DNA of 54,654 nucleotides from a virus (Duplodnaviria > Caudoviricetes): the IMG/VR virus record IMGVR_UViG_3300034071_001887, positions 1-54,654 of that record; one strand, given 5' to 3'. The position numbers and the translations under genes are program-made. Under the pieces are notes generated by a model that saw nothing but the letters and a program-made list of their open reading frames with translations, did not search any database and had not been told where the DNA came from. Positions 8,724 through 17,903 of this stretch are shown here, one piece after another; position 1 is the first letter of the stretch, and each line of letters starts with the position of its first letter.

Positions 8724-10982
8724 ATGGCAAACCAGAAAACAACTGAACTACGTTCACTTACTTCAACAAATGTAGCAAATGGCGACTGGCTTCCTATTGT
8801 AGACGTTAGTGAAATAACTAGTCCTACCGGAGAAACCAAGAAAATTTCTGCGGCAGATTTGGCTGAATATGTGGTTTCTGGCGGGTTCGCTAATTTCACA
8901 ATTCCTCAAAGAGGATTTCAGCTTTCAAATGGTTTATCTTTTGCGTCTGGAACATTGCCGGGAAGTGATACAAATTTATTTTGCTACGGAAAGGCATACG
9001 ATCTGGGGGGAAGTTTTTCTTTATCGGTAAGAGCATTTATATCTTCCGACGAAGTGCTGACAGACACAAGTAATAGAGTATTGTTTGGTGTTGGTTCAAG
9101 TTTGATTGCGATGGCGAATAGCGGAAGCCGAGCATACGTTGGAATAAAGTCTAGTAGTTTGATCGGATATATAAATGATGGTACTACCGAAAAAATAATA
9201 GAATATCCAGATTTTTTAAACTTGTATCCAAACCGTCCTTTTGACGCCACAATAACAAAAGATTCTTCTAACTATTTTAAGTTTTATGTAAATTCTCAAC
9301 TCTGGGGAACTCTTTCATCTGCTCCAAGTTTTATAAGCAGTTCTTATACTACTATGGGATGTGGACAGACCGGCAGTCATTATAACATAAACTGCGTTAT
9401 CTACGAAGCGCACGTTTTTAATACTGCATTGACTGGTAGTAAAATTATTCAAAATTATCATGGCGGCGTAAGAAATAACGACTCTACTCTCGTTTCTTCG
9501 TATACTCCGGACAACTTAAATCCTGGACCATCTCAATGGATTGATTCTATCGGCGACAACCATTTGTTGCTGCCAGTAAGTGGAGCATCGGCAACAAGTC
9601 CAGACACCAATTTTGGTTTGATATTTTTCAGTGACGGAACATCTGGATATTTGGGTAATGGTACACAGCGAGATGTTTTGCCTAAGAATTATGTTCTTAC
9701 TGATTGTTTTGTATATTCTCCCGGTAAACCGTTGTTATCTGTTGGATCTACTTCAGACGTTGCAGTAGAAGCGGACAGTGGAATATATTCATTTAATAAT
9801 AACAGAGTACCTTTAGTAAGTGCATCATATGGTAGAAACGTATTGCCATTATTGGAACTTGGTGTTGCCCACACAGATAGAAGTTTGTATGTATTTTATA
9901 GTGCAAGTGCCGCTCCTTGTACATTTAGTTTTCAAGGATATACTTGCAAATATGGACCTATAAATTTTGTTCCAGCACCTACTTCAACTCCTACACCGAC
10001 TCCATCACCTACTCCTACACCTTCTCCAACTGCAAGTCCTACCCCCACACCAACTCCAACACCTTCTCCTACTTCTAGCCCGACACCAACGCCAACCCCA
10101 AGTAATACTCCTACTCCGACCCCTAGCGGAACTGGAGCTACTCCAACTCCAACTCCCACTCGGACACCAACTCCGTCTCCTACGGCGACGGGTGGCGCAC
10201 CTTCTCCGTCGAGTACACCAGGACCAACGGCTACTCCAACGCCAACACCAACAACGCCTCCAGTATCTCCGTCCGTGGATGTTAATATCAATCTATATCC
10301 AACATATATGGATTCAGATTCTTCCGCATATGCACAGTCGGAGACTTTTGTTTCTCACGCTATACAAATGAGAACGGCTACAACTGAGGGTGGATTGAGC
10401 AGTGCCGGATATGTTACAGTGGGATCTCGCAGTGCTCCTCCGAGCAATGTTGGCGGAAATAGTGATTATTTATTGCTTACAAACGTTATTCCTACAGGGA
10501 ATCCTGCTCCATATTGGGTTGAAGCCAGAGGTGTATTGGTGACCAGTGGAGGAACTTATTATAGTTCAACCACCGACGTAGTATATTTCAATCCATCAGG
10601 AGCAACGGCGACGCCAAATCCATCATCGACTGCGACACCTACACCGACAGCTACGCCTACAGCTACGCCAACACCGACACCTACGTCTACAGCTACGCCA
10701 ACACCTACAGCTACAGATCCAGTACCAACGCCTACAGCTACAGATCCAGTACCAACGCCTACAGCTACAGATCCAGTACCAACACCTACATCTACGGAAC
10801 CAGAACCAACACCTACAGACCCTCCGCCAACGCCTACTGACTGCCCACCGGAGGGTACCATTGTTAGCATAAGCTCGTGTGATGGATGCTTGCAAGATAT
10901 AACTTATGCCGATGGAGAGTGCGGTACATACATAGATCCAGCACAATGCATTCCGGGTAACTGCTGCCCAGTATGTCCATAA
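8724..10982 (+). CDS. fibre/decoration-like protein: LamG-like domain, long Pro/Thr repeats, Cys-rich C-terminus
   Basis: N-terminal [18 protein letters not shown] fibre-type motif; [15 protein letters not shown]amG-like; two PT tracts; terminal CDGC..C..C..CCPVCP. Confidence 0.8.
10704..10784 (+). repeat. 27-nt tandem repeat x3 (PTATDPVPT)
   Basis: cctacagctacagatccagtaccaac(g/a) repeated three times, in frame. Confidence 0.9.
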
Positions 10983-10992
10983 CAATTAAAAT

Positions 10993-11403
10993 ATGAGACG
11001 CAGTATTCCACCACGAGGAAACCCAGAAAAATCCGTATTTGGATTAATAGGATCATTATTTAGTTCCGACGATGCCAAGGTATATATAAAAAGAAGAGAA
11101 GACAGTAGAAATATAGGGTGGGGGAGAATAGACGATTCTACTAACGTCGTCGATGACAATTCTACACCTGCCCCTACGCCTACGCCTACTCCTACACCGA
11201 CGCAGAGTTCTACACCAGGAGCAACACCAACACCAACACCGACGCAGAGTTCTACACCAGAGGCAACACCAACACCAACACCGACGCAGAGTTCTACACC
11301 AGAGGCAACCGCAACACCGACACCAACGCCGACGCAAACTAGCGTTCCTCCAACATCCACTCCAACCAGTTCTCCAACACCAACTCCGGAATTTTCTATA
11401 TAA
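10993..11403 (+). CDS. small Pro/Thr-repeat (mucin-like) protein
   Basis: N-terminal [21 protein letters not shown] module followed almost only by PT/STP repeats. Confidence 0.85.
11194..11319 (+). repeat. 42-nt tandem repeat x3 ([14 protein letters not shown])
   Basis: acaccgacgcagagttctacacca at 11194, 11236, 11278. Confidence 0.9.
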
Positions 11404-16027: not shown

Positions 16028-16806
16028 ATAATACAGCAGTAGTAATGTGTACATATCACAAAACGTTTTCTGGAGATTGGTATAATAACATTATAAAGCT
16101 CAAAGAACAGAACTTTCCTATATTTGAATTGTTATTTGACAATCAGTTGAACATGGCAAGGGAGGAAATTTCTTCTAAGTACCAAAATACACCAGTGTGT
16201 GTATTTAACGACGAGTTTTTTATAAAAAATAATTTTAATCGTCCTATAAGCACCAGACATAGATGGGGAAATCACCAGAACCCGAAATATTTCTATGCAC
16301 ATTTTAGAATGTTATGTTATTATATACAAAATCCAAATTACAAATACTATTGGTTTTTTGATGACGACGTTAGTTTTGAAGGAAACTTCAAAGAACTATT
16401 GAATGATTATGAACCATGCGCAGATGATTTTATAGCAATCCAAGTTTTTAAAAAAGAAAACTATGAAAATTTTCCTAATATAAGTGTTATAAATAGACGT
16501 ATGGGATCTGGTGGTAGTTGGTTAGGATTTGCGCCGGGACCGGGAGATAATTACAAGTCCTGCGAAAAGCATATGGGTAGTTTTTTTCCAATAGTTAGAT
16601 TTTCTAATAAAGCCATGCAACATTTACTAGATTTAAATACGCAAGGATTTTATGGATATTCGGAGGGGTTTGTTCCTACTTCTTTGGCAAGTGATGGGTT
16701 CTCCGTCGCCAGTATGTTAGACGAGCATGATAAATATTTTATAAACACAACAACGGAGTGTGTATTAACACATAAACACGCAGCATTTAATTGGTCATGG
16801 ATATAA
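16024..16806 (+). CDS. putative GT-A glycosyltransferase
   Basis: YKYYWFFDDDVSF DxD motif; FFPIVRFS..A; SEGFVPT; overlaps neighbours in the glyco cluster. Confidence 0.65.
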   Translation: MNNTAVVMCTYHKTFSGDWYNNIIKLKEQNFPIFELLFDNQLNMAREEISSKYQNTPVCVFNDEFFIKNNFNRPISTRHRWGNHQNPKYFYAHFRMLCYYIQNPNYKYYWFFDDDVSFEGNFKELLNDYEPCADDFIAIQVFKKENYENFPNISVINRRMGSGGSWLGFAPGPGDNYKSCEKHMGSFFPIVRFSNKAMQHLLDLNTQGFYGYSEGFVPTSLASDGFSVASMLDEHDKYFINTTTECVLTHKHAAFNWSWI

Positions 16807-17903
16807 CATTTTGTACATTTTATTTTGATATAGATAGAAAAAACTGGAAGCATTTTACGGTTTCCAACGAGATGTACATGTGTTGGTTCGACAATCTATT
16901 GTCGTTGGATATAAACTTGTTCATTGTTACAGAAAAAAAATTTATAAACAGGATTTTGGAATCGCGAAAGAAAATAGACCCGCAATTAAAAAAAACTATA
17001 ATTAATGAAACTACTATAGAAGCCCTGACAGGATATAAGCTATATAATAAAAAACTAGAACAGTTGATGTATTCAAACGATTTTAAGAGTATAATACACC
17101 ACCGAGATGTGCCAGAAATGTGCAAACCTTTGTATAATGTATTAATGTTTAATAAAGTTCATTATCTAGAGGAAGTGTTAAAAATTAATCCTTTTAATAC
17201 GGAATATTTTAGTTGGGTTGACGCGGGATTTATCAGAAGTTCTTCGGAAGTTGAAAACATTGAACAATGGCCAGATCCTTCAAAACTATTATTAAAAAAA
17301 GATAAGATAAAGTTTTTCTGTATTAATCCTAATGTATTCTCCGATTTAAAAAAGGACGTAAACAGTGCGAAATACCATTTACTTTCTCAGATGAGATTTT
17401 TAAAAGGAACTATATTTTTTCTACACAAAGACTTGATTTCTCCGCTGAAAGATAAATTTGATTTTTATGTGAACGATAGTATAAGCAAAGGATTTATCGG
17501 AAGCGACGAAAAAATATTTGATTTATGCTGTGCTAATAATCCTGATATGTTTGATTTATATCAATGCAATTGGCGGGAAGAACTTAAATTATTTTCTCGC
17601 AATTACACTAAACCAAGTATACTAGAATATACCGTGTCAATCGAGTGGAAAGAAAGTGATATAGAAAAATCAAACGACTATCAATTTTGGTTCTTCTGCA
17701 TAGAAGATGGAAACGGTAAATCTATTATGAGAGAAGATTTTCAAATATCTTCCGAAGAGGATTATCAAAAATATAAAAATTATAAAAATACATACAAAGT
17801 AATTTCTGATCGTAAGCCCGAGAATTTCGTGATATGGCCGGTTTCAAAATCAAAAGGATACCTAAGATACGTAAGGCATCCAGTCAAACATATTATAAAT
17901 TGA
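16797..17903 (+). CDS. HtrL/YibB (WlaTC)-family glycosyltransferase with extra C-terminal domain
   Basis: TFYFDIDR, YNVLMFNK, NPFNTEYFSWVDAG, GSDE motifs. Confidence 0.8.
   Translation: MDITFCTFYFDIDRKNWKHFTVSNEMYMCWFDNLLSLDINLFIVTEKKFINRILESRKKIDPQLKKTIINETTIEALTGYKLYNKKLEQLMYSNDFKSIIHHRDVPEMCKPLYNVLMFNKVHYLEEVLKINPFNTEYFSWVDAGFIRSSSEVENIEQWPDPSKLLLKKDKIKFFCINPNVFSDLKKDVNSAKYHLLSQMRFLKGTIFFLHKDLISPLKDKFDFYVNDSISKGFIGSDEKIFDLCCANNPDMFDLYQCNWREELKLFSRNYTKPSILEYTVSIEWKESDIEKSNDYQFWFFCIEDGNGKSIMREDFQISSEEDYQKYKNYKNTYKVISDRKPENFVIWPVSKSKGYLRYVRHPVKHIIN

Follow-up and report, generated by a model that had tools for sequence, protein, structure and literature searches.

A candidate phage-encoded, GT60-initiated pathway for mucin-type O-glycosylation of Pro/Thr-rich fibre-like proteins

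Nine consecutive genes (A–I) of the viral fragment IMGVR_UViG_3300034071_001887 (IMG/VR; 54,654 bp, analysed over its whole length and referred to as the window) rather probably encode a cytoplasmic system for mucin-type O-glycosylation of the phage's own Pro/Thr (PT) tracts, initiated by a glycosyltransferase of family GT60. Three genes for PT-tract proteins (A–C, the proposed acceptors) directly precede a cassette of enzyme genes (D–I) headed by the GT60 gene. Glycosylation of this type on the phage's own PT-rich fibres had been claimed in an initial annotation of this DNA. The claim is supported in part, namely by the enzyme families, by the genomic linkage of GT60 with PT tracts and by the recurrence of this pairing in type VI secretion system (T6SS), extracellular contractile injection system (eCIS) and crAss-like contexts, but not by the assignment of G and H. 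The genes of the locus are:

8724..10982, + strand: gene A, 752 aa, proposed acceptor; fibre-like N-terminal end, ConA/LamG-like region, two PT tracts, Cys-rich C-terminal end
10993..11403, + strand: gene B, 136 aa, proposed acceptor; N-terminal module of about 48 aa common to C, then a PT tract
11407..12642, + strand: gene C, 411 aa, proposed acceptor, paralogue of B at its N-terminal end; two PT tracts, Cys-rich C-terminal end
12714..14018, + strand: gene D, 434 aa, proposed initiating polypeptide glycosyltransferase; GT60 (PF11397) catalytic domain and C-terminal FN3-like module
13716..14015, + strand: FN3-like β-sandwich module of D (residues 335-434)
14022..14645, + strand: gene E, 207 aa, FkbM-family methyltransferase (PF05050, TIGR01444)
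14642..15217, + strand: gene F, 191 aa, DUF3431-like (PF11913)
15218..16027, + strand: gene G, 269 aa, probable but weakly assigned GT-A-type transferase (sub-threshold Pfam matches, phrog_1579)
16024..16806, + strand: gene H, 260 aa, DUF3405/DUF707-like (sub-threshold Pfam match and structural likeness)
16791..17903, + strand: gene I, 370 aa; HtrL_YibB domain, then an FN3-like module (about residues 271-366)

The GT60 enzyme, its proposed acceptors and the FN3-like module

An open reading frame (ORF) check placed all nine genes where they had been annotated (8724..17903, + strand), and the arrangement claimed for them, i.e., three consecutive PT-tract genes ahead of six tightly coupled genes, was borne out: A and B are separated by 10 nt, B and C by 3 nt, and C and D by 71 nt, while the genes D to I follow each other at distances of -16 to +3 nt. 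Inside the 71-nt gap, at about 12676-12691, lies a perfect palindrome of 16 nt (CTTGTATATATACAAG), which could be a regulatory site dividing acceptor genes from enzyme genes. In agreement with the earlier statement that the substrates lack signal peptides, no signal-like N-terminus or membrane segment is apparent in A–I by hydropathy, a crude measure in which the 19-residue Kyte-Doolittle mean never exceeded 1.41.

The families initially assigned to D (GT60-like), E (FkbM), F (DUF3431-like) and I (HtrL/YibB-like) hold in Pfam. D scores 249.4 bits against the GlcNAc/GT60 profile PF11397 (cut-off 21; E 9.3e-74), the matching stretches covering profile positions 2-45 and 98-350, and it matches phrog_24687 at E 6e-178. 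All three residues of its DSH motif (D93, S94 and H95) are invariant in 13 of 13 aligned relatives. A phmmer search against PDB sequences gave a chance match alone (E 0.54), i.e., no solved-structure relative by sequence. The AlphaFold2 (AF2) model of D is of moderate quality (predicted local distance difference test score, pLDDT, of 71); with this model, Foldseek retrieved human GalNAc-T4 and T2 as best PDB fold matches (E 2e-6, template modelling (TM) score about 0.4, 9-12 % identity), followed by TarS, RmlT and COLGALT1. Compared with viral predicted structures, the model matches 'Glycosyltransferase, GlcNAc' proteins from uncultured phages and giant viruses.

GT60 enzymes are described, in the available passages of two reviews, as protist polypeptide α-GlcNAc-transferases with Ser/Thr domains of the mucin type or the hydroxyproline of Skp1 as acceptors, and as lacking the ricin-like domain of GalNAc-transferases (PMC8724618, PMC6939170). 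By analogy with these characterised enzymes, the sugar transferred by D would most likely be α-GlcNAc. A prolyl 4-hydroxylase domain (PF13640) was present in none of the five records checked, which fits Thr/Ser, not hydroxyproline, as acceptor. The family comprises 7,327 metagenomic proteins at E<=1e-10 among 8,000 candidates scored, and at least 536 stretches of IMG/VR encode relatives.

The PT tracts of A span residues 411-521 (nt 9954-10286) and 623-712 (nt 10590-10859), those of C residues 48-102 (nt 11548-11712) and 252-358 (nt 12160-12480), with 8 and 6 Cys, respectively, in the last 60 residues of the two proteins. The tract of B (residues 53-136, nt 11149-11400) is made of 42-nt DNA repeats (tandem repeat at 11194-11329: period 42, 3.2 copies, 93 % matches), and the tracts of A–C are built in part from repeats of 27 to 42 nt. 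Altogether, A–C contain 447 Pro/Thr/Ser-tract residues including 190 Thr or Ser; dense Ser/Thr/Pro domains, the putative acceptors, are hence encoded together with, and directly 5' of, an enzyme of the initiating type. A has no Pfam match, and its N-terminal 410 aa are without tblastn match in cultured phages; its resemblance to Laminin_G_3 clusters (0.93, Atlas features) is to be taken as a lead only. Checked as virion proteins, A–C gave no PHROG structural match better than E 7e-4. Outside A–C, a single further PT tract was found among the approximately 52 window ORFs:

23292..24857: fourth PT-tract protein, 521 aa, tract at residues 442-485, located 5.4 kb beyond the cassette

Homologues of this protein are likewise located after the cassette in several related loci (L012-L015, L034, L035).

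The C-terminal part of D, about 100 residues long, is similar to the C-terminus of I (BLASTP E 6e-8), and a hidden Markov model of this module matches residues 271-366 of I. Folded alone, the module of D is predicted as a β-sandwich with a pLDDT of 94. Its best VIA-align Z score (6.8, to NCAM FN3) is inside the indecisive range of the tool, Foldseek gave no match in the PDB at E<=0.001, and the best PDB match of the module profile (MDA5 helicase, E 0.016) is taken as chance. The module has 181 matches at E<=0.001 among 1.84 billion representative proteins. Scanning of 30 larger matches revealed mostly GT60 proteins, including four tandem GT60-module proteins, next to single fusions with HtrL, a GT28 N-domain, a PglD-like acetyltransferase and a methyltransferase. 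Among the viral ORFs examined, the module is carried by 93 of 93 GT60 proteins and by 5 of 94 HtrL-like proteins; all five of the latter occur with a G–H–I set of the window type, three of them (window, L034, L035) also with F. The module may thus be a substrate-holding or enzyme-co-locating domain. A predicted complex of the modules of D and I scored 0.00 ('no answer'), which is no evidence either way. Docking of the module on the common N-terminal module of B and C was also considered; this idea was dropped, since all 93 viral GT60 proteins possess the module, whichever family the neighbouring PT protein belongs to.

Positional linkage with PT tracts and the variable cassette

Linkage was analysed in the best 80 of the at least 536 GT60-bearing IMG/VR stretches. 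For this analysis, a stretch counted as a PT tract when 20 or more of its residues lay in windows of 20 residues with P+T+S >= 70 % and P >= 25 %. PT-rich ORFs are distributed around GT60 as follows (61 clusters at 90 % identity):

position -1 from GT60: 26 of 60 ORFs
position -2 from GT60: 10 of 58 ORFs
position -3 from GT60: 7 of 55 ORFs
position -4 and beyond from GT60: 10 of 310 ORFs
positions +1 to +3 from GT60 (enzymes): 0 of 179 ORFs
positions +4 to +9 from GT60: 15 of 284 ORFs

The predicted link between GT60 and PT-repeat genes is therefore recovered by synteny across viral contigs, with enrichment at position -1 (Fisher p = 1e-15 versus -4 and beyond). It persists in 37 clusters at 80 % identity (10/37 versus 5/197, p = 5e-6), and a PT ORF is located within two ORFs of either cassette end in 36 of the 61 clusters. 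Judged by their non-PT parts, the 107 flanking PT ORFs represent 18 unrelated families (B and C fall into one family, of 30 PT neighbours) with heterogeneous Pfam domains (LamG, DUF285, fn3, crAss_MUZ_C, VgrG and Rv2525c-like). All 26 full-length relatives from a first scan have kept a PT-rich ORF upstream of GT60 (L022 and L023 were checked and have an intact GT60 frame). The complete relative G001 (297,258 bp, 364 ORFs; GT60 83 % identical) contains four PT-tract ORFs, three of which flank the cassette, two immediately 5' of GT60 and the third right behind the cassette (hypergeometric P = 1.8e-4). Enrichment is weaker on bacterial contigs (10/58 PT-rich ORFs at position -1 versus 9/300 more than three ORFs away, p = 2e-4), where a PT ORF is located no more than three ORFs away in 19 of 63 GT60 clusters.

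The other enzymes of the cassette are assigned with differing certainty. E exceeds the cut-offs of PF05050 (51 bits, cut-off 22.7; E 2.4e-13) and TIGR01444 (49.8 bits, cut-off 37.7), and sugar O-methylation is proposed as its role. F reaches 55 bits against PF11913 (cut-off 25; E 1e-14), its best DUF3431 stretch being limited to profile positions 6-69 of 219; the literature found on DUF3431 is fungal, with none on phage systems. The initial annotation regarded G and H as two DxD GT-A proteins: the motifs are present (DVFD at residue 91 of G, DDD at residue 113 of H), but the Pfam matches are below threshold, leaving this part of the annotation weakly supported. In case of G, Nucleotid_trans (18.7 bits, cut-off 22) and GT_PLOD (17.8 bits, cut-off 27) are both missed (E about 0.002 each), accompanied by a match to the glycosyltransferase group phrog_1579 (3e-7). 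H scores 13.9 bits against DUF3405 (cut-off 25; E 0.023), and its predicted structure resembles DUF707/DUF3405 clusters (TM 0.74-0.78, Atlas), so that a glycosyltransferase role is possible. One nearest Atlas feature cluster of H (383 members) consists mostly of Nucleocytoviricota proteins, and H-like proteins may be shared by phages and giant viruses. I scores 92.8 bits against HtrL_YibB (PF09612, cut-off 24.1; E 3.5e-26) and 100.5 bits against the YibB equivalog TIGR02192, the cut-off of which (264.9) is not reached; I is therefore a family member rather than a YibB orthologue.

The 26 close loci share the order PhoH, A-like gene, PT-rich gene(s), GT60, variable set, HtrL-like gene, HD-domain gene and Hsp20. 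Their HtrL-like genes encode 563-803 aa, often fused to GT2 or a methyltransferase, and in 55 of the 61 clusters GT60 is followed, at most 10 ORFs away and in the same orientation, by an HtrL-like gene. The variable set comprises a carbamoyltransferase, FkbM-, TylF-, CmcI- and FtsJ-like methyltransferases, GT10, GT25, GT34 and PLOD-type enzymes. This exchangeable, hypervariable tailoring set is framed by GT60 and the HtrL-like enzyme as its fixed bookends. The complete series F–G–H–I recurs in L034, L035 and L053 and G–H–I in L058, L076 and L094, loci with a GT60 merely 60-76 % identical to D; recurrence on such diverged backbones indicates that the island exchanges cassettes. Related phages would consequently carry different glycans on the same type of stalk.

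Proposed pathway, distant contexts and alternative targets

In the proposed pathway, the soluble enzyme D would move a first sugar from the host UDP-sugar pool to Thr/Ser hydroxyls in the fibre-like proteins A, B and C, within their PT tracts, and perhaps in the tract of the 23292-24857 protein; this would take place prior to virion assembly or in its course. The glycan would then be extended by F, G, H and I, and the FN3-like module present on both D and I may hold the two enzymes to the same substrate. Finally, E would O-methylate the glycan.

Several observations weigh against this pathway. By Pfam, G and H are insecure as glycosyltransferases, and a few GT60 genes occur without any cassette (L038, L039, L044). 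The linkage itself was obtained with ORFs from a crude longest-ORF rule, by which high-GC contigs may yield spurious ORFs, and with a self-defined PT criterion; moreover, the clusters share ancestry, and the Fisher values therefore overstate independence. No PT ORF is present within two ORFs upstream of GT60 or downstream of HtrL in 25 of the 61 viral clusters. The link is also one-way, PT tracts being frequent also without GT60: of 201 Burkholderiaceae genomes sampled, 5 encode GT60 and 63 contain a (TP)8-coding pattern, and co-occurrence at the genome level (3/5 GT60-positive versus 60/196 GT60-negative genomes) was not significant (Fisher p = 0.18), the pattern not being frame-aware and its reversed control also matching. 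Finally, the adjacency of GT60 and PT genes could reflect a common hypervariable fibre region.

The last point, together with the enzyme families, leads to the alternative that the cassette serves, during infection, to make or alter a glycan not attached to protein, e.g., the lipopolysaccharide (LPS) core of the host or another envelope glycoconjugate produced at the cytoplasmic face, the PT genes being adjacent only through the shared hypervariable region. HtrL_YibB, GT25 ('LPS biosynthesis protein') and GT9 occur in or near the cassettes, and their relatives classically belong to LPS-core loci, which counts against a polypeptide target; HtrL also turns up in the available listings of papers on the Acinetobacter lipooligosaccharide outer-core locus. 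The 25 clusters without flanking PT gene agree with this alternative, as does the lack of hydrophobic stretches in A–I, since LPS-core enzymes need no membrane segment. On the other hand, the first enzyme, which is conserved, comes from a family known through its characterised members to act on polypeptides. No lipid-carrier transferase, flippase, polymerase or ABC exporter family was found in the scans of 45 ORFs of the window, itself only about 24 % of the genome, and of 41 ORFs from the cassettes of relatives. PT enrichment furthermore peaks at the directly upstream ORF instead of being spread regionally, and the same GT60–PT pairing exists in T6SS and eCIS clusters. An envelope glycan as the product is accordingly considered unlikely.

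Distant relatives of the locus bear on the O-glycosylation of PT tracts from another side. The GT60 proteins of the cultured phages XacN1 (from Xanthomonas), Xoo-sp13, RAS14 and CM1 are 48-51 % identical to D; in the jumbo phages XacN1, Xoo-sp13 and RAS14, a giant post-baseplate protein with PT tracts near its C-terminus (ORF325 in XacN1, residues 3080-3161) is encoded convergently, 4-5 genes from the cassette. The XacN1 paper, in its available passages, names ORF334 (the GT60 homologue of D), describes the detection of two or more glycoproteins in the virion and proposes phage glycosyltransferases as the enzymes that make them (PMC5852040).

GT60 relatives are also encoded on 163 stretches of species genomes. 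In Ralstonia, Achromobacter, Paraburkholderia, Trinickia and others, GT60 is located inside a T6SS cluster (TssE, TssF, TssA, TagF, TssM) adjoining VgrG, and 11 of 16 VgrG homologues in these loci possess a (TP)n or (PPPSEE)n C-terminal tail. In two whole genomes, the VgrG tail is the only (TP)8-coding stretch. The tail runs to the last residue in L127 (Ralstonia sp. 25C, 7950-13131), L104, L128, L137, L140, L142, L147, L149, L151, L152 and L153; in L127 it comprises residues 810-954, the sole (TP)8-coding stretch of the 6-Mb genome.

Three further loci (L173, L166, L177) carry one or two GT60 genes in or beside an eCIS cluster (eCIS_core, CIS tape measure), preceded by PT-tract proteins of about 1,200 aa with an Rv2525c-like glycoside-hydrolase-like domain. 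In Sphingomonas sp. BE123 (L173, 845-15908), two GT60 genes follow a 1,186-aa PT-tract protein within the eCIS cluster. On Saprospiraceae and Planctomycetaceae contigs (L122, 307-13867; L124, 614-9265), GT60 and a 1,087-aa glycosyltransferase have PT-tract muzzle proteins of the crAss-like type as flanking neighbours (one of 1,845 aa; one of 673 aa, 315 of them in tracts; and crAss_MUZ_C proteins). A chromosomal island of Jiulongibacter sediminis (L111, 2958-13160) starts with UDP-glucose dehydrogenase, an epimerase, a short GT60 and a 262-aa protein with 131 tract residues, and continues with a full GT60, a carbamoyltransferase, an FkbM–HtrL fusion, an HNH gene and a DUF2357/PD-(D/E)XK gene.

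From these contexts it may be proposed, as a reading somewhat less likely than not, that GT60 with its FN3-like module represents a general prokaryotic system for cytoplasmic mucin-type O-glycosylation of PT tracts on externally exposed appendages, with strain-specific coats provided by the cassette bracketed by GT60 and HtrL. Such appendages, all assembled in the cytoplasm, might include phage fibres, muzzle proteins, VgrG (Thr-Pro)n tails and eCIS-associated proteins.

Genes adjacent to VgrG often encode effectors. As a further alternative, D could glycosylate proteins other than the A–C tracts, i.e., host proteins (for takeover), other virion proteins or, as a T6SS effector, proteins of the target cell. 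Part of the loci contain GT60 without PT neighbour, and GT60 enzymes of the Skp1 type modify one specific residue and not mucin tracts, according to the available passages of a review (PMC6939170). Such targets nevertheless appear quite improbable: PT enrichment spans 18 unrelated families, three of the four PT ORFs of G001 flank the cassette, the prolyl hydroxylase domain is missing from all five records, and multi-enzyme tailoring cassettes suit a structural glycan more than a signalling mark.

Phage glycosyltransferase clusters that hypermodify DNA are known, as stated in the available passages of one article (PMC12619734), and the cassette might analogously glycosylate hydroxymethyl-pyrimidines of the phage DNA for restriction evasion. 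In favour of this, a thymidylate-synthase-family protein is encoded in four of five near-complete GT60 jumbo-phage records (G002 to G005), and the XacN1 cassette is located near replication genes. G001, however, the closest complete relative, has no PF00303 match, which makes DNA glycosylation unlikely even though the four other GT60 phages have such a gene; no hydroxymethylase-type match was obtained in the window; the GT60 family and the structural neighbours of D act on peptides; and in T6SS and eCIS loci there is no DNA that could serve as substrate. DNA as the target is therefore regarded as very improbable. The thymidylate-synthase-family frames of G003, G004 and G005 encode 377-381 aa compared with 266 positions of the Pfam model, and these proteins may carry an extra domain.

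Genomic surroundings and comparison with known systems

The window represents 24 % of a genome according to CheckV, from which a size of roughly 200-300 kb results for the source phage. Nearly all genes are encoded on the + strand. The cassette is followed by:

17943..18617, + strand: gene J, 224 aa, HD-domain phosphohydrolase-like (phrog_5889, 2e-14; phrog_28876, 7.7e-8)
18647..18667, strand not assigned: terminator-like hairpin, 9 pairs (5 G-C) and a T run, matched on both strands; strongest of the region

In most close relatives, a J-type gene comes after HtrL, as the A-like gene comes after PhoH, and J is probably part of the same transcript as the cassette. The hairpin, the only strong terminator-like one in the region, is located 3' of J and likely marks the end of a transcription unit starting at A or D. 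A promoter scan of the region was uninformative (37 sites versus 35 expected).

Other products of the window are baseplate wedge proteins, PhoH, Hsp20, a Hoc-like Ig protein, peptide deformylase, primase and an SbcCD-like nuclease. In a megablast search the 9.2-kb region matched no cultured phage, and the window is without near relative among these phages. The ten gene starts in 8700-18000 show no Shine-Dalgarno-like purine run and are preceded by AT-rich sequence, and the closest bacterial-bin GT60 relatives (58-61 % identity, GC content 0.31-0.34) carry Saprospiraceae or Bacteroidia labels; together these features hint at a host from the Bacteroidota.

Further genes of the window stand apart from the glycosylation locus. 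The only sizeable minus-strand gene nearby (6796-7113) encodes a 105-aa Cys-rich protein with CxxC pairs and a short tail. Directly after Hsp20, a 782-aa protein (19277-21625) combines several Ig domains (Hoc-like, phrog_4069, E 2e-63) with a non-Ig part of about 300 aa. The baseplate/fibre block contains a 1,078-aa protein (40678-43914) with FG-GAP repeats and a weak dockerin-like match, and a GIY-YIG/NUMOD3 homing endonuclease (45408-46118) is encoded immediately 5' of the primase gene.

If the proposed glycosylation of PT tracts holds true, numerous jumbo phages that have not been cultured produce mucin-like glycoproteins of their own in the cytoplasm of bacteria, by means of a family hitherto characterised in protists alone. 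This would add a glycan layer to phage–host recognition, virion stability and the surface chemistry of particles in lakes and soils, would account for a hypervariable gene island as the source of diverse glycans, and would suggest that glycosylation can extend to T6SS spikes and eCIS particles. The soluble enzymes could also serve as tools for glycosylating PT linkers in bacteria. Titles and abstracts searched contained no description of GT60 in phages, of phage tail fibres O-glycosylated by such enzymes or of VgrG glycosylation; the literature found on PF11397 concerns a brown alga, and that on O-glycosylated tail fibres is a review of lactic acid bacteria.

Among known systems, the protist GT60 enzymes (mucin-type in Dictyostelium and Trypanosoma cruzi, Gnt1 of the Skp1 pathway) share with D the PF11397 domain, a DxH-type motif and the lack of a ricin-like lectin domain, and the acceptors of the mucin-type enzymes are Ser/Thr-rich and mucin-like, as given in the accessible part of a review (PMC8724618). 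In contrast to them, D-type enzymes are encoded by phages and bacteria, have an FN3-like C-terminal module and no prolyl hydroxylase partner was found; D would act on fibre or spike proteins in the bacterial cytoplasm. The metazoan GT27 GalNAc-transferases resemble D in combining a GT-A catalytic domain with a C-terminal accessory domain and in using dense Ser/Thr/Pro acceptors (proposed in case of D), but the accessory domain of D is FN3-like instead of ricin-type and D is not a Golgi membrane protein.

Virus-encoded glycosyltransferases decorating the virus's own structural proteins are reported for mycobacteriophages and chlorovirus PBCV-1 in the available passages of two articles (PMC12619734, PMC5852040), whereas here this is proposed from the genes. 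Glycans of mycobacteriophages are placed by the same passages at the C-termini of capsid and tail-tube subunits (PMC12619734) and would here be attached to fibre-like PT tracts; the initiating enzyme also differs, being a GT60, and the hosts are probably Gram-negative. ORF334 of XacN1 shows 50 % identity to D across 98 % of its length and belongs to a cassette likewise ending with an HtrL-like gene. The XacN1 cassette differs from that of the window by a carbamoyltransferase and two unassigned genes, and its PT protein is encoded convergently at a distance of 4-5 genes. The system described here is thus probably a variant of virus-encoded virion glycosylation, with the GT60 in a phage, the FN3-like module, the proposed PT-tract acceptors and the bookended variable cassette as its new traits.

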